A stretch of 64,000 bases of DNA from a virus (Duplodnaviria; Heunggongvirae; Uroviricota; Caudoviricetes): positions 59,723-123,722 of the IMG/VR virus record IMGVR_UViG_3300044557_000151; one strand, given 5' to 3'. Each line of letters starts with the position of its first letter. Position 1 is the stretch's first letter. Below the pieces are notes generated by a model. That model saw nothing but the letters and a program-made list of their open reading frames with translations, did not search any database and was not told where the DNA came from. The position numbers and the translations under genes are program-made. Shown here piece by piece: positions 5,448-56,388 of this stretch.

Positions 5448-6509
5448 ATGACTAAATCAATTTCAGAAATCTATCGGGTTTGGCTTGATGGACAATCATC
5501 AGAGGAAACGGCAAAGGTTTACCGCAACTATGTTAACAAGTTCTGCTCCTATGTTTTTGACAAGACTCCAGAACAGTTGTCTGAAGACGATATTTCTTCA
5601 GACAACTTCTATCCGGGTCTTGTCCAAGATAAGTTTATTAATCGTTTACGCGATGAAGATGTGCAAGATTCAAGCATTCGTAATTATATGAACGCCGTGT
5701 CATCTTTCATGGATGCACTGGAATCAAACCGGGTTTCTTCCGAAGCAGACTTCCTATATATCAAGAAAAACGTACTAAACAAAAAGAGCCTGAAAAAAGA
5801 TGGTGGTCATGTCTCAATGATCTCGCGGAATGATCTTGCAGCGTTTGAGGATTTCTTGAGGAATCGGAAGTATCGTAGTAAGGCAGAAAACGTTGGCCTT
5901 AAGTATGCAGGCGTCGTGGACTTCATGTTCACCTTTGCAACTCGTGTTTCAGCTACATTCAATATCAAATGGTCAGATATTAAGGATATCACTGATATCA
6001 AAGGGAACACTGACAAATGTGCATATGTTCATGATAAGGGCAAGGGATCTGGTAGTCGGGCTAATCAAAAGGTAATTGCGCCAGACTACTATGCCAAGAT
6101 GCGTGAATTATACTTCACTGGCGACGAATCAGACACCATATTCCATGAATTAACTCAGGACACATTTACGCGAATGATGAAGGAGTTCTCTGAAAAAACC
6201 GGTCGGGATATGACTCCTCACTCAATTAAAGTTGGGGCGGTTAGCTGGTTGTACGAATTAACCCACGACATTGTCCTTTGCCAGCAATTTGCGGATCATG
6301 AAGATATTGAAACTACCCAACGTTATATCCGTCTAAGTGGTGCCAATCGTAGTAAGGGTACTTATATCATGTCTGAGGGTGTTAACGTATCAGATATTAA
6401 TGATATCTCACTTGAAGAGATTGCAGCAATTGTTAAGAGTGACCCCGTATTGGCATTCAACGTATTGCGAGAATACCGCGAAGCATCACACAAAGACCAA
6501 ATTGCCTAG
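5448..6509 (+). CDS. tyrosine recombinase/integrase-like protein
   Basis: N-terminal SAM-like core-binding region. C-terminal TPHSIKVGAVSWLYELTHDIVLCQQFADHEDIETTQRYIRL fits the integrase box II pattern HxxR...LGH...TxxYxH including the catalytic Tyr. Confidence 0.6.
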   Translation: MTKSISEIYRVWLDGQSSEETAKVYRNYVNKFCSYVFDKTPEQLSEDDISSDNFYPGLVQDKFINRLRDEDVQDSSIRNYMNAVSSFMDALESNRVSSEADFLYIKKNVLNKKSLKKDGGHVSMISRNDLAAFEDFLRNRKYRSKAENVGLKYAGVVDFMFTFATRVSATFNIKWSDIKDITDIKGNTDKCAYVHDKGKGSGSRANQKVIAPDYYAKMRELYFTGDESDTIFHELTQDTFTRMMKEFSEKTGRDMTPHSIKVGAVSWLYELTHDIVLCQQFADHEDIETTQRYIRLSGANRSKGTYIMSEGVNVSDINDISLEEIAAIVKSDPVLAFNVLREYREASHKDQIA

Positions 6510-6545
6510 TAAACAAATACTAACCGTATGTTGAGCAGTTCTGTG

Positions 6546-6574
6546 TTGACAAACACTAATGCGTTTGATAGTAT
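6546..6574 (+). promoter_or_regulatory. sigma70-type promoter with operator palindrome in the spacer
   Basis: TTGACA-N17-TAGTAT. The spacer contains AACACTAATGCGTTT, the variant of the window-wide palindrome. Lies upstream of the 6622 gene. Confidence 0.5.
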
Positions 6575-6621: not shown

Positions 6622-7884
6622 ATGGTTGATCTGAAACTATATAAATATAACCAGAAAACTGCTTTTCCCAATGCGGATAGTATTTTTACTGCAAGAAGGT
6701 TATTAAGTGGATTATTTGAAGAATATCGTATTGATAATTTAATAAACGAATTTGAATCTGAGTTCCCAAAACTATCTTTCGAGGAGAAGGCTAAGCTTTG
6801 TCAGAAGTTTTCTGACTTTAATCTTCCATCATTTAACAGGGGTGCTTCGATTAGTTTTGCCCGTGCAGACGAGTTCGTTACGCGGGCAAATGTAAGTACG
6901 TTTTACGCATATGATAATACACTTAAGAAAGCGTTATTGTCTTTCTGCTATATTGATAATGACCAAGGAATCGCTCAGGCATCTCGGGCAAACAATCTTC
7001 TTCGAATTGCAATTCCTTACGAGAAAAAAGTAAACAAAACAATTTTCCAATGGGACAAATCCGAGTTCGAGTCCTATATCAGAGGAGTTCGCGAAGAATA
7101 TACTGACGTTATTACGTTCCAACAGGTCATGGTCACTCTATCACAGTTAATTGATGGGGCTAGGAAAGTTAGCAACGTCATTGTCGCGCCTTATGTGCTA
7201 CACGATATTGCTAAGGAATCCCAGCCGATTGTGAGCGAAATTTATCCAACCTTGAGTGACTTACATGAAGTCGCATATAGAATGGATGACCCACAAGCGT
7301 CTGCAATGGTAATCTTATGCTATTTAGGCGTAAAAATTAGCAGGAATTCAGAGTCTGACGAAATGCTCAGCCTAAAGAAGTCTGATCTTGATGGGAATGT
7401 GTTAACAATTTCTGGTAATGCGCCACGCAAAATCAAACTTGATAATCGAAGTGCAAACATCGTTAGAGCAGCAATTAGAACTAAATTCGAAATATTTGAT
7501 TCCGCTTCCGGGTCTCAACGGAAAATGTACTATGTGAACAGTGATCGAATTTTCCGGCCACTTGATACCAACCGAACAACTGAGCTGACTTGGGCAGGTA
7601 TGTCAAATCGAGTTCGGAAGTTTGCTAATGCGTATAAGGATTCATTCAACACGACCCAACTAATGAATGTTCGACGTTTTGAAACGGCAGGGAAAATGAA
7701 TAGTGTCCACACAATCCTCTCTGAAGAAGGAGTTGGAGATGATGAAATGTTTGAGACCTGGGACAGTCTCAAAGTATTGGACGATGCGTTAATGAAAACA
7801 GCAAATCGTTTTGGGCAAGACGCAATTAAAGCAATTTCTCGTATGCGTGTAAGATATCGGGAATATCTTAAATTAAAAAAATAA
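6622..7884 (+). CDS. divergent tyrosine-recombinase-like protein
   Basis: 420 aa. The segment ILCYLGVKISRNSES...LKKSDLD...ISGNAPRKIKLDN resembles the Arg-I region and strand of the integrase catalytic domain. The remaining catalytic residues are unclear. Confidence 0.35.
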   Translation: MVDLKLYKYNQKTAFPNADSIFTARRLLSGLFEEYRIDNLINEFESEFPKLSFEEKAKLCQKFSDFNLPSFNRGASISFARADEFVTRANVSTFYAYDNTLKKALLSFCYIDNDQGIAQASRANNLLRIAIPYEKKVNKTIFQWDKSEFESYIRGVREEYTDVITFQQVMVTLSQLIDGARKVSNVIVAPYVLHDIAKESQPIVSEIYPTLSDLHEVAYRMDDPQASAMVILCYLGVKISRNSESDEMLSLKKSDLDGNVLTISGNAPRKIKLDNRSANIVRAAIRTKFEIFDSASGSQRKMYYVNSDRIFRPLDTNRTTELTWAGMSNRVRKFANAYKDSFNTTQLMNVRRFETAGKMNSVHTILSEEGVGDDEMFETWDSLKVLDDALMKTANRFGQDAIKAISRMRVRYREYLKLKK

Positions 7885-8413: not shown

Positions 8414-8625
8414 TGACCACCGATCAACTAGATGAAGAGTTCTCAGAACTTGAAAGTGTTGTCCGATTATTTAAGATTGAATCAGAAATCGCGTTCAATG
8501 CGGAGTCCTTTAGTAAGATGATGCAACATGTTACTGACTTCCTTAAGCATGTGATGAACTCTGATGAACCAGAGGATATCTCAACCACGCGTCTGAGAAT
8601 GGTTAGTGAAATTTTAAAAATTTAG
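8413..8625 (+). CDS. hypothetical protein
   Basis: ORF track 70 aa. The ATGA start/stop overlap with the preceding gene suggests translational coupling. Confidence 0.4.
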   Translation: MTTDQLDEEFSELESVVRLFKIESEIAFNAESFSKMMQHVTDFLKHVMNSDEPEDISTTRLRMVSEILKI

Positions 8626-8645
8626 CCTTCGGGCTATTTTTAAAA
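8615..8645 (+). terminator. rho-independent terminator
   Basis: Hairpin TAGCC-TTCG-GGCTA followed by TTTTTAAAATTT, overlapping the stop codon of the 8413 gene. Confidence 0.5.
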
Positions 8646-8655
8646 TTTATCAGTC

Positions 8656-8671
8656 AAACACTATTGTGTTT
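8656..8671 (+). promoter_or_regulatory. copy of the operator palindrome (AAACACTATTGTGTTT)
   Basis: One mismatch from the recurring AAACACTAATGTGTTT. Sits just upstream of the 3D-domain gene, with no clear -10 element. Confidence 0.35.
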
Positions 8672-9317
8672 ATTGAAAGGTGGTGATACAATTAGTTCAC
8701 AGGCAAGTAAGACTGATCGTAGACCTATTAAGGTGGGTTTTCTAGCATTTGTTTCTGCGTTCGCGTTTGCAATCCTCCCGGCGAAGCACGCTGGTGGCGA
8801 TCAAATCATTCAAACACAGAAAAACGATGACCATTATCGATATTCACGAATTGTAAAAGAAGCAGATCGGCGCGTTGAGCAGAGGCGCGTTCGATACTTT
8901 CGAAGTTTAATGAAGTCTTGGCGTTCAGCTAAGGTTCATTCAGATGAGGTTGCAAGAAAAGAAAAGGCCGCGGCTATGGCTGCGGCTAATAATTCTAGGC
9001 AAACAAACACTAATGTGTTAAAGCCCGTGACAGTTGCAAGATATTCTAACTTCAGGCTTTCATTTTATGATCCAGCAGTATTGGGAGCACTTACCATGCC
9101 GGGCGGTATGTATTCTGGCGTAGCGGCGGATTTGTCGCTATTTCCAAAAGGTACGCACCTACGAATTACCGCTAATAATGGCATGATAATTGATCGGGTC
9201 GTTAATGATACTGGAACGTTTATCTATAGTAATCGATACCAGTTAGATGTTGCTTGGCCGAACAATCAAATACCTAGCGCTGGCGTTCTATACGCTACGG
9301 TTGAGGTTGTTCAATAA
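8664..9317 (+). CDS. 3D-domain protein, putative peptidoglycan-binding/lytic transglycosylase-like
   Basis: The C-terminal ~100 aa (FRLSFYDPAVLGALTMPGG...GTHLRITANNGMIIDRVVNDTGTFI...QLDVAW) fit the 3D (MltA/RlpA-like double-psi beta-barrel) domain. N-terminus is hydrophobic. The start codon is uncertain (TTG in the ORF track). Confidence 0.5.
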   Translation: MCLLKGGDTISSQASKTDRRPIKVGFLAFVSAFAFAILPAKHAGGDQIIQTQKNDDHYRYSRIVKEADRRVEQRRVRYFRSLMKSWRSAKVHSDEVARKEKAAAMAAANNSRQTNTNVLKPVTVARYSNFRLSFYDPAVLGALTMPGGMYSGVAADLSLFPKGTHLRITANNGMIIDRVVNDTGTFIYSNRYQLDVAWPNNQIPSAGVLYATVEVVQ

Positions 9318-12098: not shown

Positions 12099-13340
12099 AT
12101 GCCCAGTTATACAAACAGAAAAAACAGTAAAGTCGCAGTATCTCAAGAGCACTTGGATACTGCGATTGAAATCAAGAGAGAACTTGAGAAGCGAAGTCCT
12201 ACTCATAAGGTCTCTTGGGCGGAACACAAGCGTTTGATGGAGGCGGCTGGGTTTTCGGACTCCGAAAATTCTGGTAACTATAGACTGATGATTAGAGCCG
12301 AACTCAATCGACGGGGAAACCCAACAAGAGTTGATAGCTTAGATCAGTATGTGAATCCTGAAAAGACGTCATCGTTGCGTGAAGCTGTGGGGGACTTAAA
12401 GTTCCGACAGTTGGAAATGCAGGCTGAGGGCAGAGACCTGAATAAGCTGAAGAAGCAAACTTCAGAAGCTCTGTTGTGGCAAGATAGACTCTTAGAAGGA
12501 CTAGCCGAACATCAATTTAGCCCGATCAAAGAGAATCCAATTGTCCATAGCGAATCAGATGAACACGAGATGATCGCAGTCCTCTCAGATATTCATTTTG
12601 GCGCAGTTGTGGATTTAGAAGAGAATCAATATAATACCGAAATCGCGGCTCAGCGTTTGAATGACTATGCGGATAAGCTTATCGAAATGGGTAAGCAAAA
12701 CCATGTTGAGAATATCCATGTTGTGAATATCGGGGATATTATCGAGAACCCTTATATGCGGCACAGCGCAGCATATAATTCTCAACGCACATTAGTTGAC
12801 CAAACGATTGAAGTAACAGATTTGATTATTGGTTTCTTGGGCAGATTAGCTCAAGAATTCCATGTTGATTATGCAGCAATTGCTGGTAATCATGACCGAA
12901 TCGTCGGGAAGAACCATGGCGATGATAACCTGTTTGCCGATGATGTTATCACCATTAGTAATAAGATTATCGAATACGCAATCAAGACCATCTCAGATCG
13001 AATTAAGTACATCCAAGCTCCAAAGTACCATTACGAGCTTTTCTGTAAGTGGAATTGGTTCGAGTTCGTCCATGGTGATCGGGATAAGTTGAACAAGCCT
13101 ACGATCTTGGCAGAATTAAGCAACCTATACGGCAAGCAGTTCTCATTAGTCGTAGGTGGGCATATCCATCATAACGTTCAAAACGAAGTTGGTGACGACC
13201 AGTATGTTACTACTGTTGGGTCATTGAAGGGTACAGACGATTTCTCTCTCCGAATTGGAGCAAGAGCATCAGTATCCCAAGGTGTAATCCTTGTCGATTC
13301 CAACTCAGGTGAATTTGAAACAAAAATCGTAAAGTTGTGA
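12099..13340 (+). CDS. calcineurin-like metallophosphoesterase (SbcD/Mre11-like nuclease)
   Basis: Phosphoesterase motifs are present in order: DIHFG, GDIIEN, GNHD and GGHIHH. Confidence 0.65.
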   Translation: MPSYTNRKNSKVAVSQEHLDTAIEIKRELEKRSPTHKVSWAEHKRLMEAAGFSDSENSGNYRLMIRAELNRRGNPTRVDSLDQYVNPEKTSSLREAVGDLKFRQLEMQAEGRDLNKLKKQTSEALLWQDRLLEGLAEHQFSPIKENPIVHSESDEHEMIAVLSDIHFGAVVDLEENQYNTEIAAQRLNDYADKLIEMGKQNHVENIHVVNIGDIIENPYMRHSAAYNSQRTLVDQTIEVTDLIIGFLGRLAQEFHVDYAAIAGNHDRIVGKNHGDDNLFADDVITISNKIIEYAIKTISDRIKYIQAPKYHYELFCKWNWFEFVHGDRDKLNKPTILAELSNLYGKQFSLVVGGHIHHNVQNEVGDDQYVTTVGSLKGTDDFSLRIGARASVSQGVILVDSNSGEFETKIVKL

Positions 13341-15755: not shown

Positions 15756-15818
15756 TAGACAAACACTAATGTGTTTGGTAATATAATAGACGTAGGTTAA
15801 ACAAACACTAACGTGTTT
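15756..15818 (+). promoter_or_regulatory. promoter-operator unit driving the tRNA array
   Basis: TAGACA-N17-TAATAT at 15756..15784. The palindrome AAACACTAATGTGTTT lies in the spacer and a second copy, AAACACTAACGTGTTT, at 15803..15818. Confidence 0.6.
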
Positions 15819-15994: not shown

Positions 15995-16065
15995 GCGGAT
16001 ATAGTTCAATGGTAGAATTCTAGTTTTCCAAACTAGCGACGCGAGGCCGGTACTCGTTATCCGCT
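15995..16065 (+). tRNA. tRNA-Trp(CCA)-like with atypical T-loop
   Basis: Acceptor GCGGATA/TATCCGC. Anticodon stem CTAGT/ACTAG with loop TTCCAAA. The T-loop GCCGGTA lacks the conserved TTC. May be a pseudo-tRNA. Confidence 0.4.
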
Positions 16066-16096: not shown

Positions 16097-16780
16097 ATGG
16101 AGATTTGGAAGCCGATGGTTGGATATGAGGGCCTTTACGAAGTGTCTAATGACGGACATGCGCGTTCTGTATCAAGAGAAATTGTGGATAGCGTTGGACG
16201 CAGACGCACCCTAAAAGGCAAGGCAGTCTCGTTCACTATAAATCCCAGAGGATATCTTACCTTTCACGCCACGAAAAACGGTAATAGAAGAACAGCATTC
16301 ATTCATGTTGAAGTGGCGAAGGCGTTTATAGAAAAACCTATTTCTGACGAGCGTTTAGATGTGAATCACAAGGACCATAATAAATTGAATTGCTCAATTG
16401 AGAATCTTGAGTGGTTGACACACGGAGATAATGTGAGAGATCTCAGCATATACCGGGCAAGGACATCAAACACATTAACGAGATTTACAAGGGTCAATGA
16501 TAAGATTGTCAAGCTACCAGATAAGACTTGCGTAGATTGTGGAAAAACCGTTGAGTTCACATCCACTCGTTGTCCTTCATGTGCGGCAAGCGCGTCAATG
16601 ACTTTCACAAACAACGTCGGAGTTATCCCGAAAAATATGCTAGTTTCCGTCCTTCGTGAGAATAATGGGAACTTTGTTAAGGCTGCTGCTGAGTTCGGAA
16701 TTACAGATAACTCCTTGAGAAAGTGGTGTAAGAAATATAATTTGCCATTTCACTCATCGGACTATAAGAAAGCATCATAA
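16097..16780 (+). CDS. HNH homing endonuclease (NUMOD4 + HNH + C-terminal HTH)
   Basis: GYEGLYEVSNDG (NUMOD4 motif), VNHKDHNKLNCSIENLEW (HNH motif) and a C-terminal helix-turn-helix. RBS AAGAGGAGG. Confidence 0.75.
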   Translation: MEIWKPMVGYEGLYEVSNDGHARSVSREIVDSVGRRRTLKGKAVSFTINPRGYLTFHATKNGNRRTAFIHVEVAKAFIEKPISDERLDVNHKDHNKLNCSIENLEWLTHGDNVRDLSIYRARTSNTLTRFTRVNDKIVKLPDKTCVDCGKTVEFTSTRCPSCAASASMTFTNNVGVIPKNMLVSVLRENNGNFVKAAAEFGITDNSLRKWCKKYNLPFHSSDYKKAS

Positions 16781-17120: not shown

Positions 17121-17344
17121 GGCAAGAAGACATGTTCTTTAAAGGACGTGATGAATTGCACGTATCTGCGTCAGCAGGTACAACAGCCTTGGTAGCGAAA
17201 ACCAAACTACCAACCTGAACTCAACGTTAAGGCGCGGAACGCGCCGTGGTCAATAACCGTAACCTCTGCATTGTTAGTTTAATGCTAATGGTGTAAGTCA
17301 GCGGTGTTCCCAGAAGCTCGGTCATTTATGACCGAGTAGTTCAC
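17121..17344 (+). mobile_element. ORF-less miniature IS200/IS605 derivative (left end + right end/omega-RNA scaffold)
   Basis: 17121..17160 is nearly identical to the left end of the full IS at 54477. 17245..17344 is nearly identical to the right end at 56190..56287 and ends in the same GAGTAGTTCAC. No ORF between the ends. Confidence 0.6.
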
Positions 17345-17348
17345 GAGT

Positions 17349-17421
17349 GCAACTGTAGCTCAGCGGTGGAGCGGCTGCTCAGAAGAGTAGAGTGTCGCTG
17401 GTTCGATTCCAGCCAGTTGTA
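17349..17421 (+). other. degenerate tRNA-like element (pseudo-tRNA, Phe-like loop CAGAAGA)
   Basis: Good acceptor stem, D-arm and T-arm (GCTGG-TTCGATT-CCAGC) are present. The anticodon stem cannot pair. Begins 4 nt after the mini-IS right end. Confidence 0.35.
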
Positions 17422-17574
17422 GATCCGTGGACTATGTCTAAAATACCTATGTTCTCCTGGTGTCGGTTTGAGGAGACTAACTTTTGGCGGGATGTTCGCA
17501 CATAAGATTGCGAACTTTGTTTCGGATAGTAAAACCGTTAGTCGTGATTGCGAAGTACAAGCTTTCGCGCATAT

Positions 17575-18006: not shown

Positions 18007-18476
18007 TCAAGCCGAAAGGTTTGAGTTCTTTGCTGTTAATATAACTACCTATCGGATTGGCTAATGACCGCCGATATTTCGGGGATGTAACGGTCTCGAC
18101 AGGATATGCTTAACTGACAAAGCATGTAGAGTGATGACTTAATCATCAACTTGCTAAATGCAAAACAAAACGATTTAGTTGCGGCCTAAGTTTAACTTAG
18201 TATAGCAACACTTACCCCAACGTATGATACCAGATACAAGACGTTGGCTAAACAGGCTGGTGTAGGATGACACTTACTTATTTTCATAAGCTTATCCGAA
18301 ATCTATTGAAAATATGCTCGTCTACTCCGATTGCCCATTTGCGGAAGACGCTAAGACTAATAAGTGAGCTAAGCATGTAGAATTGTCAGATAGAAGCATG
18401 TGTTGGAAACGGGTTCAACTCCCGTCATCTCCATATAGTATGTCGTTACACAATAACATACTAGATATAGTGCAAC

Positions 18477-20036: not shown

Positions 20037-21247
20037 GATACAGTAGAGCGGTCCAAAAGGAACTCGCAAAGGCTTTTGGCGTTGATCGAATTTGGTCATA
20101 CAGCCGAATCAGCACTTTTGTGAATTGCCCTTGGGAATACAAAGTTAAATATATTGACCATGTAAGAGATGCTGGAAATGTCTATTCATTCTATGGGACT
20201 CAATGCCACAATATCATTCAAGGATTCTATGATGGGGTATATACCTACGATCAAATGTCCACTGAATATACCGATTTCGTTCGTCAATGGATGGATGACC
20301 AAGATCATTTCAATTTTCCGAAATCGAAAGATGGATCTGATAAGACCGAAAAGAGTTATATTAAGAATCTGACTCATTATTTCAAGAACACTCAAGTTGT
20401 TGATACTTCGAATGGAATTGAAATTCACAACGAAGAGCCAGTACTTGTTCAGATTCCTAAAGATGACAACCCGGCGGCGTTCGTTCTAGTGGGTTATATT
20501 GACTCGCTATATAAGGATGGCGACGATATCTACCTGTTAGACTACAAAACATCCTCGAAGAGTGGATTCACTGGAAAGAAGCTTATTGAACACTCGCAAC
20601 AATTGCGTCTATATTCAATCGGCATTCATCAACAGAAGGGCATTCCATACGACAAAATTAATCCTCGTTTTGACATGATGAAGTATGTGAAAATCCGGTT
20701 TAAGCAAGAAAATGGTAAGTGGAAGGAGACAATCCAGGAACGGGCATCTTGGGTATCGGGAATTGCCACCAAGCTAAAGACGAAGCTCAAGAAGGCAGGA
20801 CTTGGACCGCTTGAAATTCAACAAGCGATTGATCTTGCAGATGCCCATGGAAATCTGGATAACTTACCGGAATCCGTTCAGAAACAATTCGAAGTTGGCA
20901 ATTGCTATATTGACGTTGAAATCAACGAAGAGATCGCGGCAGAGACTCTCAAGAATCATGCCGACACCATTACTGAAATTATGCGTCGTGAAGCGTGTGA
21001 TCCAGCGACTTATCCAGAAGTGTTTGAACGCGATTTGGCACCATTCCAAAACTCGTTAATGTTTGGGCACATGGCTGAAGCACTCTCTAAGGAAACCATC
21101 GATTACACAGATGATGCTGGAAAGAAACAAGTGTCTAACGTTGTTGATTTAGTATCGTTATTCAAGCCACAGGGGGCAGACAATGGTAAAGAAAAACCAG
21201 AAGAGCCGGGGAACAGTCTTGAACGCCTCGGTTTACATGTATCATAA
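20033..21247 (+). CDS. PD-(D/E)XK family nuclease (RecB/Cas4-like fold)
   Basis: Core motif GYIDSLYKDGDDIYLLDYKTS carries the D...D/ExK catalytic triad of PD-(D/E)XK nucleases. Confidence 0.55.
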   Translation: MRYSRAVQKELAKAFGVDRIWSYSRISTFVNCPWEYKVKYIDHVRDAGNVYSFYGTQCHNIIQGFYDGVYTYDQMSTEYTDFVRQWMDDQDHFNFPKSKDGSDKTEKSYIKNLTHYFKNTQVVDTSNGIEIHNEEPVLVQIPKDDNPAAFVLVGYIDSLYKDGDDIYLLDYKTSSKSGFTGKKLIEHSQQLRLYSIGIHQQKGIPYDKINPRFDMMKYVKIRFKQENGKWKETIQERASWVSGIATKLKTKLKKAGLGPLEIQQAIDLADAHGNLDNLPESVQKQFEVGNCYIDVEINEEIAAETLKNHADTITEIMRREACDPATYPEVFERDLAPFQNSLMFGHMAEALSKETIDYTDDAGKKQVSNVVDLVSLFKPQGADNGKEKPEEPGNSLERLGLHVS

Positions 21248-21431
21248 AAATGAGAAAGAACCACAATTTATTGCTGCGTTGAATAAGAGCGAATTACACA
21301 GTCCAGACTTCAATCAATATGTCGCGGCAGTTACTGAAAAGTTTGGGAAGCAAATTTATGTTAAGATCGATAAAATTGAGTATGCGGTAACACCTCAAGC
21401 GAACGGTTGGTTGCTATATGACAAACACTAA
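21239..21431 (+). CDS. hypothetical small protein
   Basis: Frame of ORF 21183..21431. ATG at 21239. Overlaps the dnaE start. Confidence 0.3.
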
Positions 21432-24400
21432 TGTGTTTATTAACCTACACCAGCATACCGATTATTCTAACGGGTCTATGTTCGAAGTAGTTTCAACAAC
21501 GCAAGATTACATTGATTATGCTAAAGAGCATCAACTTCCGGCTGTGTGCATTACCAATCATGGGAATGTAGTTGGGTGGCTGAAGTCAAAACGTGCAATT
21601 GAAAAGGCCGGGCTGAAATACATTCATGGCATTGAAGCCTACGTTACGATGACCTTAGACGAAAAGATTAAAGATAGCTATCACACAATCTTAATTGCTA
21701 AGAATTATGAAGGTGTCAAAGAGATTAATCGCCTTTCATCTGGAGCATTCAATCGAGACGACAATCATTACTATTTCAAGCCACGCATCCTATTCGATGA
21801 TTTGGTAAAGACTAGCGATAATGTGATTGTAACTACAGCCTGCTTAGGCGGTGCAATTTGGCAGAGTATTAGCCATAACCAACCAGACGTCCTTACAAAA
21901 TGGCTTGAATTTGCTCAAGCAAACCCGGATCGTGTTTATCTTGAGGTCCAACCTCATATGGATGACGACCAAAAGGCGCTTAACAAAGCTCTGTTAGAAA
22001 TCGCAAAGACGTCTAGTTTAAAGCTGATTGCAAGTAACGATGTCCACGCCGCAACTCAAGAACACAATACCATTCGTCAAATCATTAAGAAGGGCAAAGG
22101 CATTGAGTATGAAGGTGATGACGCATTTGAATTATGGTCTAAAGACTACGATGAGATGTACGCCGGATTCAAAGCTCAAGGTGTTCTAAGCGACGAACAA
22201 ATCAATGACGCGTTAACTCAAACTGCCAAGATTGTACAACAGGTCGAAGAGTTTGAAGTTGACCGTACAGCCAAGTATCCTCACGTTTCTGATAATCCAG
22301 ATCAAGAGTTGCTAGACTCGATTCAGAAGGGCTATCACGAGCATGGTTTAGATCAGTTACCAATTGATGACCAGCAGGTTTACCTGCAACGCATTCAGCA
22401 CGAGGTTGAAACGTTCCGTCATAACGGAGCGGTCGAATACATGGTTTTGGACAACATGGTTGCCCAAGAGGCTCATCGTCAAGGTCGTCAGTTTGGATAC
22501 GGTCGTGGTTCCGCCGCCGGTTCGTTAGTTATGTTCCTAACTGGAGAAACTGCGGTTGATCCAATCAAATGGGGATTAAGCTTTGAGCGCTTCATGAACC
22601 CCGAACGAGTATCCCTAGCCGATGTGGACAGAGACTTCGAGAGTGTCGATCAACAGGCGATGCAGAGGTGGTTGGTTCACAACCCAAGCTTCCATTCAGC
22701 CGCAATCATGACTATTAATACTTTCGGACTCAAAAGCGCTATTCCAGCCTTGGCAAATGGTATGCCTGAATACGCCGGAAAGAAGTCTATGATCGAGTCC
22801 ATTAAGAGTTCGATTGCCGATGATGGTAGTTATGCACCCAAGCTTCGCGCCCAGAACGAAAAACTATTCCAATATGCTGAGGCGATTATGGGCGTGACCT
22901 CATCATTTGGTCGTCACGCAGCGGGCATTCTCGTTAGCTCAGATCAAATTGATGAGACTGTTGGCACAATGACGCTGAAGACTAGCACTAGTCCAGACGT
23001 GTATCTAACAACTCAACTCGATATGGGCGACATCGAATACATGAAGTATGTAAAGATGGACATCCTTGGTCTGGATAATGTCGGATTGATTAAGAAGGCG
23101 TGTGATTACGCAGGCTTACCATATTTGACACCAGAAAGTACGGACATCATCGATCCAGAAGATGAAGCCGTTTGGAATTCATTAACCGAAAGCACAATCG
23201 GGATCTTCCAATTTGAAGGCGAACGTGCTGAAAACTTCCTTCAGAAACTTTTCTCCAAGGAGACGATGGCAAAAATTAAGGCTGGAGACCCAGATATCAA
23301 GATGATGGATATGTTGTCTTTGGCAAACGCCGCAATGCGTCCAGCTGGGGCAAGTTATATCGAATCGTTAACTCGTGGTGAATTCTATGACAACGGTCAT
23401 CCAGCACTGAACAAGTTCCTTGGGAAAACAATGGGACGTTTAGTTTATCAAGAGAGTTTGATTGAGTTTTTGGAAAAGTTCTGCGGTTACACAGCAGGGA
23501 AGGCGGACATTATCAGAAGAGGTATAGGCCACAAGATTCCCGCTGTTATGAATGAAGAGGTCCCAAAAATCAAACCCGCGTTTGTAAAGACTATGGTTAA
23601 TAAATATGGTGATACGAAAGAGCACGCCGAATCGATTGCTGATGCTTTTATTCAAGTGTTCATGGACGCTGCCAACTATGGGTTCTCCGTCAACCATTCA
23701 ACACCATATTCGTGGATTGGTTACATCTCCGCTTGGTTGCGTTACTACTATCCAATTGAATTCATCACTGCTGGTCTTGAAATCTGGAAAGATAAGCCAG
23801 AAAAGACTAACAAGCTGATCCAGTACGCACAATCAAAGGGTATTACGATTCAGACTCCTAAGTTTCGTAAGTCTAAGGGGGCATACTTCTTTGACAAAGA
23901 AACTAACGTGATTTATCAAGGAACCGCCCCAATCAAGGAAAACAACGCACAAACCGGTGATACGCTGTACGAACTGAAAGACGACAAATTTAACACGTTC
24001 ACCGACTTTTTGTTAAAGATTACCGATAACGGGGTCGTCACCGATCACGGAGTTGGCTATGAATCATTTGAGTCAACGTTTAATCGCTATCAAGATAATG
24101 AAGACGCAATCAAAGACCTAGACAAGATGATTAGGGCTCAGGATATGTTTGTTGAATCAAATCCAATGTCGATTAATAAGAGTCAGATGGAAGGATTGAT
24201 TTCCATTGATTATTTCGCTGAGTTCGGTAAACGGGACAAGCTGATGAAGATTTATACGTATTTCCGAGACAATTATAAGAAGACTGCCAAGACGATGAAG
24301 ACAAAGTTTAAGAAGTATTGGATGATTCGTGACTTCGAATCGTCCTGTGCAGATGAGGACTTTTCATATAATCGGACTGTTCAGGCTGAGTTGTATTACT

Positions 24401-24711: not shown

Positions 24712-25040
24712 ACTATACCGCAAAGGTAACACGCGTGTTATATCGCCAAGACGATGAGCTAACACGAAAGCTAATTAACGCATATGCAAATGTGCGTTGG
24801 TTGGAATCAGAAAAGCGCGATCAAAAACACGAAGTCCGTATGACGTTTGATGCGATGGTAAGACGTGTGTTGGATACCAACCAAGTCGTTATTGTCCAAG
24901 TATTGAAGGATGAAGATGATAATCAACTGTTGCGCTTCATCGAATTTGACATCGTCAACGAAGGTCACGTTTATGAGATTGCGTCTTTAGACGTTCAGGA
25001 TGGATTACCAAATGTTGGTGTGTTAGAGGTGGAGGATTAA
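24708..25040 (+). CDS. hypothetical protein
   Basis: ORF track 110 aa. ATGA overlap with dnaE. Confidence 0.45.
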   Translation: MNYTAKVTRVLYRQDDELTRKLINAYANVRWLESEKRDQKHEVRMTFDAMVRRVLDTNQVVIVQVLKDEDDNQLLRFIEFDIVNEGHVYEIASLDVQDGLPNVGVLEVED

Positions 25041-25819
25041 TGGCAATGAAAATGATGACAACGAAGACATTTCAAAAGAAAATCGATGATAAATACAATC
25101 ACAAGTTTTTACTCATTGATGATGAATCTGAGACAATTCCTGTAAAAGCAGTCAGAAAACTGTACTGTAGATCGTGCGGGTTAGTCCAGGAATTTCAAGT
25201 TAGGAGATTACTTGTAAAAGAGTATGAGTGCCCGAAGTGTAGACGTAATGAGGCTTTGAGCGGGTGGAACAATCAGAATGATTATTGGCGCACCGTAAAA
25301 GATTATGAAGGGGTGTATGAAGTTTCTCGAAGGGGTGAGGTGCGAACACTTCCTCGGTTACTTAGAAGTAGAAATGGAACACTTTCGTTTGAATCGTCAA
25401 AAATGCTCGTACCAAATCCTGGGAGACGAGGATATCTAAGATATGTTTTATCGATGAGCGGAAAAACCACGCTTCGTTCGGCACACAGAATGGTCGCGGA
25501 TGCGTTTATTCCAAACCCACATAACCTTCCGCAAGTTAACCATATCGACGAGAATAAGACCAACAATTGTGTTGAGAATCTGGAATGGTGTTCAGCCAAA
25601 TATAATTGCAACTTCGGCACAAGAATTGCAAGAATTTCTAAAAACCGTAGAATGTATCGTAATATCATTGCGGTAGATACAGATGGGAATAAAACGAGTT
25701 TTGAAAACGTAAAGGATTTTTGCAAAAAGACAGGAGCAAACAGTTCTTGGGCTCGCGAATGTTTATTGAAGAAGACCGGTACGTGCCGGGGTTATAAACT
25801 TATGATTGGAGTTAATTAA
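25040..25819 (+). CDS. HNH homing endonuclease with N-terminal zinc finger
   Basis: YEGVYEVSRRGEV (NUMOD4 motif) and VNHIDENKTNNCVENLEW (HNH motif). N-terminal CRSCG...CPKC. Confidence 0.7.
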   Translation: MAMKMMTTKTFQKKIDDKYNHKFLLIDDESETIPVKAVRKLYCRSCGLVQEFQVRRLLVKEYECPKCRRNEALSGWNNQNDYWRTVKDYEGVYEVSRRGEVRTLPRLLRSRNGTLSFESSKMLVPNPGRRGYLRYVLSMSGKTTLRSAHRMVADAFIPNPHNLPQVNHIDENKTNNCVENLEWCSAKYNCNFGTRIARISKNRRMYRNIIAVDTDGNKTSFENVKDFCKKTGANSSWARECLLKKTGTCRGYKLMIGVN

Positions 25820-26400
25820 TGGCGAAATTTATATATCGTTATGCCGCGATGTCGGCTGGCAAGTCCTTAGATCTATTGAAAGTTGCGCATAATTACAAGG
25901 ATCAAGGACGAGAAGTCCTGCTAATGACTCCGGCAATTGACACGCGCAATGGTGAAGGGGTTATCAGCAGCCGCGTTGGATTACAATCAAAAGCAATCGC
26001 GTTATCTGTAGAGGATTCACCAGTAAAGATGTTGAATGCTCTAAATAATCCATTACCGGATTGCATCCTTGTTGATGAGGCACAATTCCTGACGAGCGCA
26101 CAAGTAGATGACTTCGCCTGGATTGTTGATTTTTTGAACATTCCGGTGATTTGCTACGGACTTAGAACTGATTTTCAAGGCAATCTTTTTGAGGGCAGTC
26201 AAGCGCTAATGTGTTTAGCTGACAGCATTGAAGAAATCAAAACAATCTGCGCTAAATGCAATCATAAGGCAATTATGAACCTTCGAACCGTAAATGGGAA
26301 ACCAGTTACTGAAGGAGATCAAATTGTCATTGGCGATACCGAATATATCAGCCTTTGTCGCAAACATTGGAAAGAAGCTACAAATTCTTTGCCATTTTAG
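25819..26400 (+). CDS. tdk: thymidine kinase
   Basis: P-loop AAMSAGKS. C-terminal zinc ribbon CAKCNHKAIMNLR...LCRKHW. Typical 193-aa Tdk. Confidence 0.9.
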   Translation: MAKFIYRYAAMSAGKSLDLLKVAHNYKDQGREVLLMTPAIDTRNGEGVISSRVGLQSKAIALSVEDSPVKMLNALNNPLPDCILVDEAQFLTSAQVDDFAWIVDFLNIPVICYGLRTDFQGNLFEGSQALMCLADSIEEIKTICAKCNHKAIMNLRTVNGKPVTEGDQIVIGDTEYISLCRKHWKEATNSLPF

Positions 26401-26401
26401 G

Positions 26402-26464
26402 TAGACAAACACTAATGCGTTTAGTATACTAATACTCGTAAGTTAAACAAACACTAATGTGTTT
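26402..26464 (+). promoter_or_regulatory. promoter-operator unit
   Basis: TAGACA-N17-TATACT at 26402..26430. Second palindrome copy AAACACTAATGTGTTT at 26449..26464. Confidence 0.6.
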
Positions 26465-26579
26465 ATTGGAGGGTGCTAGTCGAGAAAACTCGTTACTTTA
26501 GTGACGAGATGAATCAACGTATTGGGCAATCACCGGTGTAGTGTTCTAATAGCGTACCATAGGGTACACGGGAAAGGAG

Positions 26580-27731
26580 ATGATAAATATTGTTTTAAAA
26601 GGCATTAAACTAAGAATATACCCTAGCAAAGAGCAACAGCTAAGTATAAAGCTTAACTTTGGATATAACCGATTTGTTTGGAATCAGATGCTGGGTATGT
26701 TACAAGAAAGATATGCTAATAACCCTAAGCTATCTTTTCCTAGCGCCTTTACTTTAAATAACTTGTTACCAACAATGAAGATAGAATATTCTTGGCTTAA
26801 CGATGCTGAAAGTCGTAGCTTACAAATAACCTGTAAAAACTTAGTTGATGCTTACAAGAAGTTCTTTAAGACCCATAAGGGGTTTCCTAAGTTTAAATCA
26901 AAGAAGTATCCTAAGCAAAGCTACCAAACAAATTCTACAATAAAGCTAAAGGCCAACGAAGTTAAGTTTCCGAAATTAGGCTATATGAAGTTTAAAGGTA
27001 GTAGCAAAAAACTAAATGAGATTACTAAGATTAAGCTAGGAACTATTAAACTTACACCTACTGGTAAATACTATCTTGTACTGATTGCAGAGTGTGAAAA
27101 CCAAGCACTCCCTAAATCAGGAAATCAAGTAGGTATTGATATGGGGTTAGCTGATTTGATGATTACTAGTGACGGTGTAAAGTATCCTACTTTAAGATTT
27201 GACAAGATACTAGCTAAGAAAAAACGTTACTGGGAAAAGCGTTTAGCTCGTAGACGACTTCAAGCTCAAAAAGAGATTGCTTGGGATAAGCATAATAAGG
27301 TATTAAATCCTAGGGAACTTTCCAACTTTAAAAACTATCAGAAAGCAAAGCTAATGGTTGCTAAGTATTCAGAAAAAATAGCTAACCAGCGTAAAAACTA
27401 CCTTCATATGCTTTCAAAACAGCTTGTATCACAATATGATGTGATTAAGATAGAAGATTTGAAAACCAAGAATCTTCTTAAGAATCATAAGTTATCTAGA
27501 GCAATAGCTAATGCAAGTTGGAAAGAACTTAGAAGACAACTAGAGTACAAGTGCTTATGGTATGGGAAACAGTTAGTCACTGTGAACCCTAGAAAAACCT
27601 CACAAATATGTTCTAGTTGTGGCTATGATGACGGTAAGCATACCTTAGATATTAGAGAGTGGACATGTCCCAAGTGTGGTGTTCACCACGACAGGGACAT
27701 TAACGCGGCTATCAATATCTTAAATGCTTAA
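26580..27731 (+). CDS. tnpB: TnpB RNA-guided endonuclease
   Basis: N-terminal KLRIYPSKEQ...FGYNRFVWNQ. RuvC-I GIDMG and RuvC-II IEDLKTK. C-terminal CSSCG...CPKCG zinc finger followed by RuvC-III DRDINAAINIL. Confidence 0.9.
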   Translation: MINIVLKGIKLRIYPSKEQQLSIKLNFGYNRFVWNQMLGMLQERYANNPKLSFPSAFTLNNLLPTMKIEYSWLNDAESRSLQITCKNLVDAYKKFFKTHKGFPKFKSKKYPKQSYQTNSTIKLKANEVKFPKLGYMKFKGSSKKLNEITKIKLGTIKLTPTGKYYLVLIAECENQALPKSGNQVGIDMGLADLMITSDGVKYPTLRFDKILAKKKRYWEKRLARRRLQAQKEIAWDKHNKVLNPRELSNFKNYQKAKLMVAKYSEKIANQRKNYLHMLSKQLVSQYDVIKIEDLKTKNLLKNHKLSRAIANASWKELRRQLEYKCLWYGKQLVTVNPRKTSQICSSCGYDDGKHTLDIREWTCPKCGVHHDRDINAAINILNA

Positions 27732-27854
27732 ATGACTAGTGTGGGCTGGAACAGCCCTTAGTAAATAGTCGTAACCGCTACACCTCATTCAACGAATGAA
27801 GTGCAAGTCAGCGATGTTCCTAGAAGCTCGGTCATTCATGGCCGAGTAGTTCAC
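27732..27854 (+). ncRNA. putative omega-RNA scaffold / IS right end
   Basis: Structured segment 3' of tnpB with hairpins. Conserved with the other two right-end copies (GTTCC-AGAAGCTCGGTCATTCATGGCCGAGTAGTTCAC). Confidence 0.45.
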
Positions 27855-29311: not shown

Positions 29312-30448
29312 GTGGATACCTATCAAGCATACAAAGTCCGTATCTATCCCACTCAATTACAAGCTGATATGATTATGCAATTTATCGGAAATAGTCGATT
29401 CGTGTATAACCAAATGCTTGCCATGCAGGCTGATCGTTACAAGAACGGCGGAAGGTACGTTGGATACATGGCAATGTCCAACCTAGTCAAACCACTCAAA
29501 CAAGAGTACGCATTCCTCAAGCTGTCACCATCTCAATCGCTACAACAGGCGTGTGCGGATTTGAACGCCGCTTTCCAGAACTTCTTTGCTAAGCGCGCAG
29601 ACTATCCACGGTTCCACTCCCGAAAAGGTGCGAAGCAATCTATGCGGGTCATGCAGGCTTGTTCCATCATCGCTTCGGGAGTCAAGCTGCCAAAGCTCGG
29701 TATCATGCGTTTCCGTTATGGATATAGTCTCGACCCGTCACTTAAAATTCGGCAAGTGACCGTCTCGTACACCTCATCTCACAAGTTTTACGCCAGCATC
29801 TTAGTTAAATGCGAAAAACAAGCATTGTCTAAAACTGGTGAACAAGTGGGATTGGATATGGGCGTGGCTGACTTAGCTATCCAGAGCAATGGCAAGAAAA
29901 TTCCAACTCAGAAGCATGACGAGCTGGAACACTCTCTTCACATTTGGCAACGTAAGTTGGCTCGCCGTAGGGAGTTAGCCAAGGCGGAAATCGCTAAATC
30001 CAAGCACTATGACCACACTGAATTGACGCTTGATGACTTCTCCAATTACAACAAGGCGAAAATAATGGTTGCTAAGTTGCATGAGAAGATTGCTAACAGG
30101 CGGAAGGATTACCTACACAAGACGACAACCAAATTGGTGCGGGAATATGACCTTATCGCTATGGAAGATTTGAGGACCAAGAATATGGTCAAGAATCACC
30201 ATTTGGCGAAGTCAATTACCAATCAAGGCTGGAACATGTTTAAAACCATGCTTCAGTACAAGTGCGAGTGGTATGGGAAGACAATAGTGGTGGTAAACCC
30301 GCGGAATACCAGTCGCGTATGTTCTGATTGTGGTGTGGATAGCGGCAAGAAACCACTAGATGTGCGGGAATGGACGTGTCCAGGATGTGGTACATGGCAT
30401 GATCGTGATGTGAATGCAGCACAAAACATTTTGAAATTAGCAGTGTAA
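29312..30448 (+). CDS. tnpB: TnpB RNA-guided endonuclease
   Basis: KVRIYPTQLQ...GNSRFVYNQ. RuvC-I GLDMG, RuvC-II MEDLRTK. Zinc finger CSDCG...CPGCG. RuvC-III DRDVNAAQNIL. Confidence 0.9.
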   Translation: MDTYQAYKVRIYPTQLQADMIMQFIGNSRFVYNQMLAMQADRYKNGGRYVGYMAMSNLVKPLKQEYAFLKLSPSQSLQQACADLNAAFQNFFAKRADYPRFHSRKGAKQSMRVMQACSIIASGVKLPKLGIMRFRYGYSLDPSLKIRQVTVSYTSSHKFYASILVKCEKQALSKTGEQVGLDMGVADLAIQSNGKKIPTQKHDELEHSLHIWQRKLARRRELAKAEIAKSKHYDHTELTLDDFSNYNKAKIMVAKLHEKIANRRKDYLHKTTTKLVREYDLIAMEDLRTKNMVKNHHLAKSITNQGWNMFKTMLQYKCEWYGKTIVVVNPRNTSRVCSDCGVDSGKKPLDVREWTCPGCGTWHDRDVNAAQNILKLAV

Positions 30449-30568: not shown

Positions 30569-30616
30569 TTCCGCTACGTTGGGTATGACGTCAAAGATCA
30601 TTATAACGCTTTGGGC

Positions 30617-30808
30617 GAAGTAGACGGTTACGTCATCTCATGGAATAACGAAAAGGGACGGTAGATAATGAAATTTGAACCATATCAACATGTACAACGT
30701 ATGGGCGTTGACGAAGTAGACGGTTACGTCATCTCATGGAATAACGAAAAGGGACGGTAGATAATGAAATTTGAACCATATCAACATGTACAACGTATGG
30801 GCGTTGAC
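30617..30808 (+). repeat. perfect 96-bp tandem duplication spanning RBS and start of the RNA ligase gene
   Basis: 30617..30712 equals 30713..30808 exactly. A 12-bp junction GAAGTAGACGGT recurs at 30809. Copy 1 creates a decoy 30-codon ORF (30668..30760). Confidence 0.9.
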
Positions 30809-31696
30809 GAAGTAGACGGTATCCTGGATGGTAATGTTGTCATTCAACCGAAGATTGATGGAACAAACGCATCAATCTGGTTAGACCAAAATGGAACCTT
30901 GGGATTTGGAAGTCGTCGGCGAAAGCTGACTTTAGAAAAGGACAACGCGGGGTTCATGACCTTCTTCACCTCTGAAATGGCTCAAGGCGACGCCGCCAAA
31001 TTACAAGAGTATCTCGAAGATAACCCAGATTACACCATTTACGGCGAATGGTTAGTCCAACATGTCGTTCATTACAAAGATAACGTTTACCATCAACTGT
31101 TCATTTTCGACGTCTACGACAATGCGAATGAACGATATCTCAACATCGAAGAATATCAAGATGACCTTCAAGAGTTGGGCATGTCGTATGTGGTTGTGAT
31201 CCCGGCGATTTACAAAGGTAAAGCAACAAACGAGATGATTGTAAAGCTCGCTAAGGATAACCACTATCTTCTGGAAAAAGACCAGGTCGGTGAAGGCGTT
31301 GTAGTTAAACGATATGACTTCGTGAATCGATATGGGCGTACCACTTGGGGTAAATACGTGCTTGCAGATTTCAAGAAGCGCAAACATGATGGACGTAATT
31401 ACTCTCAGGATGTTGATGGTATTGGGAACAGTTATGCAGAACCTATTGCTAAATTCATTACACCAGCGTTTGTCGAAAAAGAGTTCATTAAGTTTAAAGA
31501 GCGATTGGATCACCCGTTTAGTGGAAAAGATATTCCGGCATTGCTAGGGACCGTGTATCACGAATTTGTTTCAGAAGAGACGTGGCATTTCTTGAAAGAA
31601 CTTGGGAAGAGTCCGGTTGTCAACTTTGGAACTGTACAGCGCGAATCGTACAAACAAATTAAGCGGTGTTTGCCTGTCTTATTCGGCCAAGCATAG
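30764..31696 (+). CDS. ATP-dependent RNA ligase-like nucleotidyltransferase
   Basis: Motif I KIDGTNA (ligase/capping-enzyme lysine adenylyltransferase). 310 aa. RtcB lies nearby. Confidence 0.5.
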   Translation: MKFEPYQHVQRMGVDEVDGILDGNVVIQPKIDGTNASIWLDQNGTLGFGSRRRKLTLEKDNAGFMTFFTSEMAQGDAAKLQEYLEDNPDYTIYGEWLVQHVVHYKDNVYHQLFIFDVYDNANERYLNIEEYQDDLQELGMSYVVVIPAIYKGKATNEMIVKLAKDNHYLLEKDQVGEGVVVKRYDFVNRYGRTTWGKYVLADFKKRKHDGRNYSQDVDGIGNSYAEPIAKFITPAFVEKEFIKFKERLDHPFSGKDIPALLGTVYHEFVSEETWHFLKELGKSPVVNFGTVQRESYKQIKRCLPVLFGQA

Positions 31697-32412: not shown

Positions 32413-33603
32413 TTGGAAATCAAAGGTAAATACGGCGTTGCAAAAGTAATGACCGAGAATATTGAGCAAACCGCTCAAGAACAGTTGAAAACGTTACTGG
32501 ATCAGCCATACATGAAGGGCAACGATGTTCGAATCATGCCGGATGTTCACGCTGGTAAAGGCGCAACAATTGGCACTAGCATCAAGTTAAACAACGACTT
32601 CATTTGCCCAAATACGGTTTCGGTCGACCTGGGCTGTGGAATGCACGTATTCAAGCTTGACATCGATCATGTAGACTTTGAAAAGTTGGATCAGTTAATC
32701 AATAACGAAGTACCATCTGGTTTCAACGTTTACGAAAATCCGATTCGTAAATTCAGACAAATCAATTATACTCGCATTACTCATCTGAAAAACTACGATC
32801 ACATCTTGAACAGTATTGGAACTCTTGGTGGTGGGAACCATTTCATTGAAATCGATCAGGATACCGATGGTGTTTACTACCTGGTAATTCATTCAGGCTC
32901 ACGCAACTTGGGCGTTCAAGTTGCCAACTATTATCAACGCTTAGCAATTTCGAATCAGTCAAAGAATGTTGAGTTACGCGACGCTGTGATTGCAGCATGT
33001 AAAGAGGTTGGACAAGAGCGTCAGATTGAGGGTTTGTTGAATACGTTGAAACAAACGAATCCAATCATTCCAGACGAGTTGGCTCCTGTCAGCGGCCAAG
33101 ATGCTGAAGACTACTTATACGACGTATCGATTGCACAAGAGTTTGCAGCGTTGAATCGTTTGACGATGGCCGAAACAATTATCTACGGCATGAATTGGCA
33201 AGTTGATTCAGACTTTGATTCAATTCACAACTACATTGATATCGATAATCGAATTATTCGCAAAGGTGCTACCGATGCCTCGTTGGGGAAACAATTGGTT
33301 ATCCCATTGAATATGCGTGATGGCTCGATTATTGCAACTGGCATGGGTAACTCTGACTGGAACTACTCAGCTCCACATGGTGCAGGTCGCGTAATGTCTC
33401 GCAAGAAGGCGTTTGAAACAGTTGCCATGAACGACTTTACCAAATCGATGGAAGGTATCTACTCGACTTCTGTTGTCAAAGAAACGATTGATGAATCACC
33501 GTTCGCATACAAGCCTGCACAAGAGATTATTGATGCAATCAGTGAGAAGACTGTCCACATCGATAAGGTGATTAAACCGGTTTACAACTACAAGGCACAT
33601 TAA
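32413..33603 (+). CDS. rtcB: RtcB-family RNA 3'-phosphate ligase
   Basis: MPDVHAGKGATIG, GGGNHFIEID and APHGAGR motifs. Start uncertain: TTG at 32413 or ATG at 32449. Confidence 0.85.
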   Translation: MEIKGKYGVAKVMTENIEQTAQEQLKTLLDQPYMKGNDVRIMPDVHAGKGATIGTSIKLNNDFICPNTVSVDLGCGMHVFKLDIDHVDFEKLDQLINNEVPSGFNVYENPIRKFRQINYTRITHLKNYDHILNSIGTLGGGNHFIEIDQDTDGVYYLVIHSGSRNLGVQVANYYQRLAISNQSKNVELRDAVIAACKEVGQERQIEGLLNTLKQTNPIIPDELAPVSGQDAEDYLYDVSIAQEFAALNRLTMAETIIYGMNWQVDSDFDSIHNYIDIDNRIIRKGATDASLGKQLVIPLNMRDGSIIATGMGNSDWNYSAPHGAGRVMSRKKAFETVAMNDFTKSMEGIYSTSVVKETIDESPFAYKPAQEIIDAISEKTVHIDKVIKPVYNYKAH

Positions 33604-39804: not shown

Positions 39805-39887
39805 ACAAACACTAATGTGTTTGGTAATATAATAAGAGTAGTCAAACACTAATGTGTTTTTAAGGCCGACTGCATCGGCCTTTTCTT
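39802..39887 (+). promoter_or_regulatory. promoter-operator unit with leader hairpin and intrinsic terminator
   Basis: TAGACA-N17-TAATAT at 39802..39830. RNA-level palindrome AAACACTAATGTGTTT at 39844..39859. Terminator hairpin AAGGCCGA-CTGCA-TCGGCCTT + TTTTCTT at 39862..39887. Confidence 0.55.
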
Positions 39888-56287: not shown

Positions 56288-56298
56288 GAATTCAATAG

Positions 56299-56356: not shown

Positions 56357-56388
56357 TTGTTTAACAAGATGTTAAAGGGGAGATTAGT

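Follow-up and report, generated by a model that had tools for sequence, protein, structure and literature searches.

MrpR (YopR, also called SroF), the master repressor of phage SPbeta, has an inactive tyrosine-recombinase fold (PMC10516654). Its binding site, the repeated element SPBRE, is documented by ChAP-seq peaks at SPBRE promoters, by EMSA and by repression of lacZ reporters, and the SPBRE copies located in SPbeta leaders are likewise DNA sites bound by MrpR (PMC10516654). A SroF monomer clamps a 26-bp non-palindromic box, of which it reads 24 bp, and its helices enter two successive major grooves (bioRxiv 10.1101/2025.11.27.690993). We scanned the SPbeta genome (NC_001884) for SPBRE. 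The promoters of yonP, yorE, yorZ and yosX have the form TAGACA-[AATACAAATAATATGTA]-TATAAT, the -10 region of yosX being TAATATAAT, i.e., TAATAT(AAT), and yorM shows the same build with the -10 hexamer TATCAT. At yopM, yopV and the second copy of yonX, SPBRE is a leader element immediately upstream of the ribosome-binding site (RBS), while yonX and yosX carry paired copies 64-68 bp apart. Every SPBRE copy in SPbeta is oriented with its downstream gene.

The DNA analyzed here, referred to as the window, comprises 64,000 nucleotides of an uncultured Caudoviricetes phage (IMG/VR record IMGVR_UViG_3300044557_000151), representing about half of the genome, with all genes on the + strand. No close DNA relative was found in the phage collection, and the sole DNA match was a TnpB gene, the first of the window, at 88% identity to the Lactobacillus phages Lbab1 and Lb338-1. 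DnaE is at most 37% identical to the DnaE proteins of cultured phages and 47-53% identical to proteins on contigs of ~120-130 kb from Lactobacillaceae; the host is probably a member of the Lactobacillaceae and not a Bacillus. As judged from a yorG-yorH-yorI-yorJ-yorL(DnaE) gene order and a YopP-like protein, the window belongs to an SPbeta-like phage. The yorG position is taken by an AAA_24/Sak4-like protein, the yorH position by a 201-aa gene whose syntenic counterpart in a relative (L111) matches Pfam YorH, and the yorI position by a DnaB-like helicase with marginal similarity to YorI itself (BLASTP E 0.01). A YorJ homologue follows in this replication module, then a PD-(D/E)XK nuclease and, at the yorL position, DnaE. 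The YopP-like gene (5448-6509, + strand) matches Pfam Phage_integrase and SPbeta YopP (BLASTP E 7e-11), and its product has HSIK in place of the recombinase HxxR in an alignment to the XerC-like protein 4A8E. Its candidacy as the MrpR homologue of the window was dropped, its BLASTP match to YopR reaching only E 0.21. The order of a YopP-like gene followed by an MrpR-like gene is common to the window and SPbeta. The window yielded no SprA-type integrase, arbitrium gene or antirepressor; only the repressor homologue suggests a temperate phage. Assignment of the gene at 8664-9317 as a YorM orthologue was not supported (E 0.78).

The initial annotation had proposed a recurrent promoter-operator unit, exemplified by positions 15756-15818 (TAGACAAACACTAATGTGTTTGGTAATATAATAGACGTAGGTTAAACAAACACTAACGTGTTT) and listed at six positions. 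This unit is real: exact matches of the 29-nt pattern TWGACAAACACTAATGYGTTTNNTANNNT occur at 6546, 15756, 26402, 39802, 50462 and 56299, i.e., at six of six positions, with no match expected by chance. All six units, named in the following by their first coordinate (U6546 and so on), lie on the + strand and read T[A/T]GACA-17-TAnnnT with a box inside the spacer. The -35 hexamer is TAGACA in five units and TTGACA in U6546. The proposed promoters were borne out as sigma-A-type promoter-like units, being the best + strand sigma-70-type matches of their regions, with 9-10 of 12 positions. They occupy short gaps right after the stop codons of the upstream genes. Promoters of consensus type lacking the box are found at 3788 and 4706, so that the box-bearing promoters represent a distinct class. 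A MerR-type site in a long spacer was discarded, because only the 17-bp register yields TAnnnT in all six units.

The box itself, the 16-mer AAACACTAATGTGTTT, recurs far above expectation. At up to three mismatches the window contains 17 matches, compared to 1.2 expected, and none of 100 shuffled sequences reached 17. Allowing up to two mismatches, 15 copies remain, all on the + strand (~1 expected) and none on the - strand of the window; these are six promoter-spacer boxes, five second boxes and four lone boxes. A perfect 16-bp palindrome, as had been described, is not what the sequence forms. Only the 6-bp arms AAACAC and GTGTTT are inverted, and they flank an asymmetric, non-self-complementary TAAT; the reverse complement of AAACACTAATGTGTTT is AAACACATTAGTGTTT, which restricts the inverted repeat to these arms. 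In the information profile the box carries a one-sided 5' extension, A-R-W-C, with C at position -1 in 15 of 15 copies and A-R-W before it, and no mirror image of this extension on the 3' side; the initial annotation had not noted the extension. When the six units are aligned, the boxes and hexamer positions prove conserved, in contrast to the diverged 21-26 nt that separate one box from the next. This argues for selection on the boxes themselves. A second copy about 40 bp downstream had been assigned to the unit in general. It is present in five units, at 15803, 26449, 39844, 50509 and 56341 (42, 42, 37, 42 and 37 bp past the first box, respectively), and there is no clear second copy in U6546.

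U6546 (6546-6574, + strand) consists of TTGACA-17-TAGTAT with its box at 6551-6566 (T12>C) and heads the MrpR-like gene. A degenerate box-like stretch, AAATACTAACCGTATGTT at 6513-6532, lies 38 bp upstream of this box and may be its decayed partner. At U15756 (15756-15818, + strand), the site originally reported, TAGACA-17-TAATAT encloses box 1 at 15761-15776; box 2 occupies 15803-15818 with the centre TAAC, and a tRNA-Arg begins 17 nt past it. U26402 (26402-26464, + strand; TAGACA-17-TATACT) has box 1 at 26407-26422, which like the first box of U6546 carries T12>C; the RBS GGAGGG comes after its box 2 at 26449-26464. Right after this RBS a TnpB element is inserted in the window. U39802 (39802-39887, + strand; TAGACA-17-TAATAT, the same -10 region as in U15756 and in SPbeta yosX) is located upstream of a DnaQ-like exonuclease gene, with box 1 at 39807-39822, box 2 at 39844-39859 and a terminator-like hairpin at 39862-39887. 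U50462 (50462-50558, + strand; TAGACA-17-TATACT) precedes small genes and comprises box 1 at 50467-50482, box 2 at 50509-50524 and a terminator-like hairpin with a T run at 50526-50558. U56299 (56299-56356, + strand) reads TAGACA-17-TATACT with a TG-extended -10, has box 1 at 56304-56319 and box 2 at 56341-56356 (C4>T), and heads a short gene followed by a RecD2-like helicase gene (57140-59419). The units had been said to head the tRNA array, the replication-nucleotide block and the helicase block. This holds for the tRNA array (U15756) and the RecD2 helicase (U56299) but not for U26402, which is followed by the TnpB insertion and small genes; the exonuclease block (U39802) and the repressor-candidate gene (U6546) are headed by units as well. 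The terminator-like hairpins at 39862-39887 and 50526-50558 lie downstream, not upstream, of the U39802 and U50462 promoters, and a transcript started at either would run into a termination signal within about 30-60 nt. These hairpins might serve attenuation, yield a short RNA or terminate the upstream operon as well.

Two of the lone boxes had been listed before, and both are present. The box at 8656-8671 (+ strand, centre TATT) follows a terminator (8623-8636 plus T run) and precedes the RBS of the next gene, with no promoter hexamers at the site. The box at the start of dnaE (21423-21438, + strand) begins 5 nt past the ATG at 21418 and holds the stop codon TAA of the upstream ORF (21429-21431) in its centre; here ATGACA-17-TAACCT gives a weak promoter-like match. 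Copies at 9005 (one mismatch) and 26201 (two mismatches) were absent from the initial list. The former (9005-9020, + strand, T16>A) lies inside the ORF 8664-9317 and is translated TNTNVL, in the same frame as the copy at the dnaE start. The latter (26201-26216, + strand) is a degenerate box, AAGCGCTAATGTGTTT, inside the thymidine kinase gene, and its function is doubtful. No -10 element was found at second and lone boxes. Compared to homologues starting with MF[IV]NLHQH, DnaE carries five extra, box-encoded residues (TNTNV); an in-frame GTG at 21433 would give MFINLHQH and might instead be the true start. In the genes after the 8656 box and after U56299, no ATG, GTG or TTG occurs between the RBS and the conserved coding part (8676-8702 and 56374-56396), and the presence of ATTAGT(N)TCACAG at both places suggests that ATT may serve as the start codon. 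A role of the motif as a source of start or stop codons or as a leader peptide was rejected, as the frames are inconsistent across copies.

The window contains three TnpB (IS605 OrfB/Cas12f-like) genes at 26474-27854, 29312-30448 and 55009-56301, which have in common a 3' end element ending in CTCGGTCATTCATGGCCGAGTAGTTCAC; a solo TnpB end at 17231-17358 abuts an odd tRNA at 17348-17422. The first TnpB element, located between the RBS and the start codon downstream of U26402, is absent from a 96-97% identical contig (L093). The same contig lacks one of two NUMOD4/HNH_3 homing-endonuclease genes, the one at 25040-25819 between dnaE and the thymidine kinase gene; the other (16097-16780) lies in the tRNA array. 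We considered whether the boxes represent REP or IS200/IS605-type hairpins or TnpB targets, and rejected this since the IS ends have a different hairpin and four units are without a nearby IS. The tRNA array also encloses a phage tmRNA at 18081-18436 (Rfam 112.9 bits; tag AKQNDLVAA). Rfam detected in addition a tRNA at 15995-16065 that was missed by ARAGORN. A perfect 109-bp tandem duplication (30616-30820) overlaps the start of an RNA ligase gene (30764-31696) and repeats its RBS and first codons; with RtcB (32413-33603) following, the ligase forms an RNA-repair pair.

Outside the window the motif was not found beyond this phage lineage in the IMG/VR, genome and metagenome collections. A 21-mer gave no match in IMG/VR, and the 16-mer and an 18-mer gave single chance matches only in IMG/VR and the genome collection. 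The metagenome collection also returned mostly single chance matches, the exceptions being five contigs from the samples Ga0172377 and Ga0172378. Three of these can be aligned with the window (88-98% identity) and two have no match to it. An additional box, TAAGAC-AAACACTAATGTGTTT-TATTATTAC, occurs on contigs without a match to the window, L060 (- strand, 2779; Ga0172378) and L075 (1602; Ga0172377), and presumably belongs to the half of this phage's genome that lies outside the window. In the relatives with 47-53% identical DnaE the motif is absent. These relatives carry other recurrent promoter-linked repeats, e.g., L094 at 2600-2650, 12743-12789 and 20792-20842 and L109 at 9740, 16518, 16743 and 17803 (DnaE 47-52%). 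The repeat AAAACATCTTCATTTTTNCATGAATATATNTTGACTT of one relative is positioned upstream of and including the -35 hexamer. In a Liquorilactobacillus hordei element the repeat TAGTAGTAATATTAACATT directly precedes ribosome-binding sites, and a divergent HTH_3 repressor-like gene lies before the replication block.

The factor binding the box had been sought among small HTH or zinc-ribbon proteins of the window. A likelier candidate is the 420-aa product of ORF 6622-7884 (+ strand), the gene headed by U6546, for which profile search, profile-profile alignment and structure comparison agree. A profile built from 11 MrpR-family proteins matched this ORF only among 666 six-frame window ORFs (hmmsearch E 3.8e-8), and the profile alignment retains the invariant residues Q125, G136, E144, N161 and R173, G136 being the site of the c2 temperature-sensitive mutation. 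An exhaustive search recovered 20 distant relatives of the protein. Aligned against the MrpR family by hhalign, they scored 99.7% (E 8.4e-26), and the 279 aligned columns take in almost the whole of MrpR. Pfam detected MrpR_N_CB in six of the 20 relatives and MrpR_C_cat in one, and PF22823 is listed in the precomputed annotation of a 99%-identical database protein. An AlphaFold2 model (pLDDT 82) returned YopR (8BPZ, 8BJ6), MrpR (8A0A) and the phi3T SroF-DNA complex (9RD5; E 2e-9) as the best PDB matches in Foldseek, at E 5e-10 to 2e-9, with XerA and Cre ranking below them. The identity to MrpR is ~17-18%. BLASTP found no MrpR in the window, and the local Pfam and NCBIfam models found no MrpR domain in the single 420-aa sequence, which, lying below local Pfam detection, marks a remote family member. 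These profile and fold comparisons place the protein in the MrpR/SroF family as a distant homologue; it has a tyrosine-recombinase-like fold and is extended by ~90 aa at its N terminus. An integrase-family fragment also precedes its closest relative, L114; nothing informative came from the regions upstream of the two closest relatives. A relation of the 420-aa protein to YopQ was not supported.

We therefore propose, as the probable explanation, that each A-R-W-C-AAACAC-TAAT-GTGTTT element (~20-24 bp) acts as a DNA operator of the MrpR/SroF-type master repressor encoded at 6622-7884, and that the units delimit an early lytic regulon repressed in lysogeny. That the 420-aa protein binds the box, and that binding represses, we infer from its homology and from the SPbeta parallel. 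A predicted site for one phage factor, common to a dispersed regulon, is in line with the initial proposal; assignment to a middle class is not, since by analogy to SPbeta these would be lytic promoters that are off in lysogeny. In all six units the spacer box, at -30 to -15, would overlap the -35 hexamer, so that a repressor bound there would shut out RNA polymerase. The second box of five units, at about +7 to +27, may provide extra occupancy or a roadblock, and the lone boxes before an RBS and at the dnaE start might be roadblocks or weak sites. The dispersed early lytic operons (tRNA array, nuclease, polymerase, helicase and accessory genes) would be off in lysogeny and would fire jointly once the repressor is removed. 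U6546 could be the promoter through which the repressor gene is autoregulated, a counterpart of the SPBRE in front of yopM, with which the yopMNOPQR operon begins; TTGACA, a single box and one mismatch in it would permit continued, self-limited expression. Binding of an SroF-type repressor as a monomer would explain the single orientation, the asymmetric centre and the one-sided extension. The fixed register of the box with the -35 and -10 hexamers and its recurrence far above chance speak for the operator. Against it stand the perfect 6+6 inverted repeat, which a monomeric clamp leaves unexplained, the two units that run into terminator-like hairpins, which a simple repressor does not need, and a box core unlike both SPBRE and the phi3T box.

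Transcribed boxes could form a 6-bp hairpin with a UAAU loop that is bound by an RNA-binding protein and affects translation, processing, stability or antitermination, with spacer copies acting on read-through from upstream. Such an RNA element would make use of the perfect 6+6 repeat, and it fits both the coding-strand location of all copies and the conservation of their asymmetric loop, although monomeric repressor binding accounts for the polarity as well. Copies abut an RBS (8656; and 26449, which in the relative L093 is followed by GGAGGGCATATG) or cover the dnaE start, yet the SPbeta element has the same placements, including leaders, and is bound as DNA by MrpR. Variants in transcribed copies fall into the loop (15803, 8656) or keep G.U pairing (56341, 26201), while the variant of two spacer copies breaks RNA pairing, as an RNA role would predict, the numbers being tiny throughout. 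The terminators right after two units would suit hairpin-dependent antitermination. However, the hairpin alone is marginal (about -5 kcal/mol), terminator-free leaders fold no better than shuffled sequences (z -0.01 to -1.6), and the locking of the first copy to the -35/-10 register in six units has no RNA rationale. Rfam gave no family match at the units, and only tRNAs and the tmRNA reached gathering scores in the window; no diverged relatives that carry the motif were found. An RNA element is hence an improbable explanation, and the earlier suggestion that the second copy folds as an RNA hairpin was not supported, though not refuted either, given this folding energy, z values near zero and the fact that leader copies in SPbeta are MrpR DNA sites (PMC10516654). 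To the same low degree we credit a dual role, in which the DNA operator is also an RNA hairpin at the second boxes, at 8656 and at the dnaE start and gates translation or terminator read-through. If true, it would explain the 6+6 repeat, which sets the box apart from those of SPbeta and phi3T, and the variants that preserve G.U pairs.

The whole 29-nt block, rather than the box, might be what is recognized, by a phage activator, sigma factor or RNA polymerase. The Lpa-dependent late promoters of phage P1 contain an inverted repeat centred near -22, and here the box centre lies at about -22.5, conservation extends over the block beyond the hexamers, and the -35 in five of six units is TAGACA and not TTGACA. 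But the hexamers and the 17-bp spacing already are good sigma-A matches (9-10 of 12), a -10 element is missing from the second and lone boxes, and the factor that binds the SPbeta counterpart acts as a repressor and not as an activator, which together make activation quite unlikely; of the window proteins that were scanned, none was an RNA polymerase or a sigma factor. The least credible of the readings weighed here is that the units are kept mainly as recombination substrates that shuffle gene blocks in the manner of the promoter-stem-loop (PeSL) cassettes of T4-type phages, factor binding being secondary. Differences from near-identical metagenomic relatives do cluster at units: L093 differs downstream of U26402, divergence of L071 rises after U50462, and TnpB elements abut U26402 and U56299. 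PeSL, however, is a terminator stem-loop plus a promoter (PMC4122927), while the repeat here lies within the spacer, and conservation of box positions next to diverged inter-box stretches of 21-26 nt indicates selection on the box. The clustering is moreover compatible with the operator model and not exclusive of it, a recombinogenic side effect of the units being possible.

Returning to the operator of an MrpR/SroF-type repressor, the arrangement is most likely a remote, further example of the known SPBRE/MrpR(SroF) switch and reveals no new kind of mechanism. It would extend the recombinase-fold master-repressor system beyond the SPbeta-like phages of Bacillus into an uncultured and very distant relative and provides a map of the predicted early lytic promoters of this phage. 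The new box sequence, paired with a new repressor variant, would be useful for studying how the clamp reads DNA and how operators co-evolve with it.

Two more distant systems share single traits with the window. In phage P1 one master repressor, C1, controls many scattered promoters through an asymmetric operator; the dispersed asymmetric operators are alike, but protein fold and operator are unrelated. PeSL of T4-type phages resembles the window in its recurrent, near-identical early-promoter cassette and variable gene content (PMC2839356, PMC4122927). Its GC-rich stem-loop, found in hyperplastic regions, is a terminator beside the early promoter and involves no repressor (PMC4122927), whereas the repeat in the window is AT-rich and part of the spacer; a terminator is close to two units only, on the downstream side of their promoters.

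The closest match is SPbeta, and by its architecture the window unit is a counterpart of SPBRE with a different core. Both phages have a dispersed box repeated in a single orientation, which fills the 17-bp spacer between the atypical -35 hexamer TAGACA and a -10 of TATAAT or TAATAT, with paired copies at some promoters. The lone box at 8656 and the second box of U26402 parallel the SPBRE leader copies before an RBS. In both genomes the gene of a recombinase-fold repressor, a candidate in the window, lies near a YopP-like gene and is accompanied by a syntenic yor-type replication module. The phages differ in the core, AAACAC-TAAT-GTGTTT in the window compared to ATACA-AAWAATA-TGTAT in SPBRE; the box does not match the SPBRE consensus and has in common with it only the TAGACAAA prefix and the promoter frame. 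Pairs are spaced by 37 or 42 bp, bracketing the -10 and the start site, compared to 64-68 bp in SPbeta, and the candidate repressor has 420 aa with an N-terminal extension and ~17% identity to MrpR, which has 325 aa. In phi3T, SroF and Phi3TRE (PDB 9RD5) again combine a recombinase-fold repressor with a long asymmetric box, which fits the polarity of the window box; the window yielded neither a Sar-type antirepressor nor a LexA box. The phi3T box, CAGTAATTTTATTTTTATTCTTAATG, is rich in A-tracts and non-palindromic, in contrast to the perfect 6+6 inverted repeat found here. As it is also wholly unlike SPBRE, identity of the box is not required for membership in this family.
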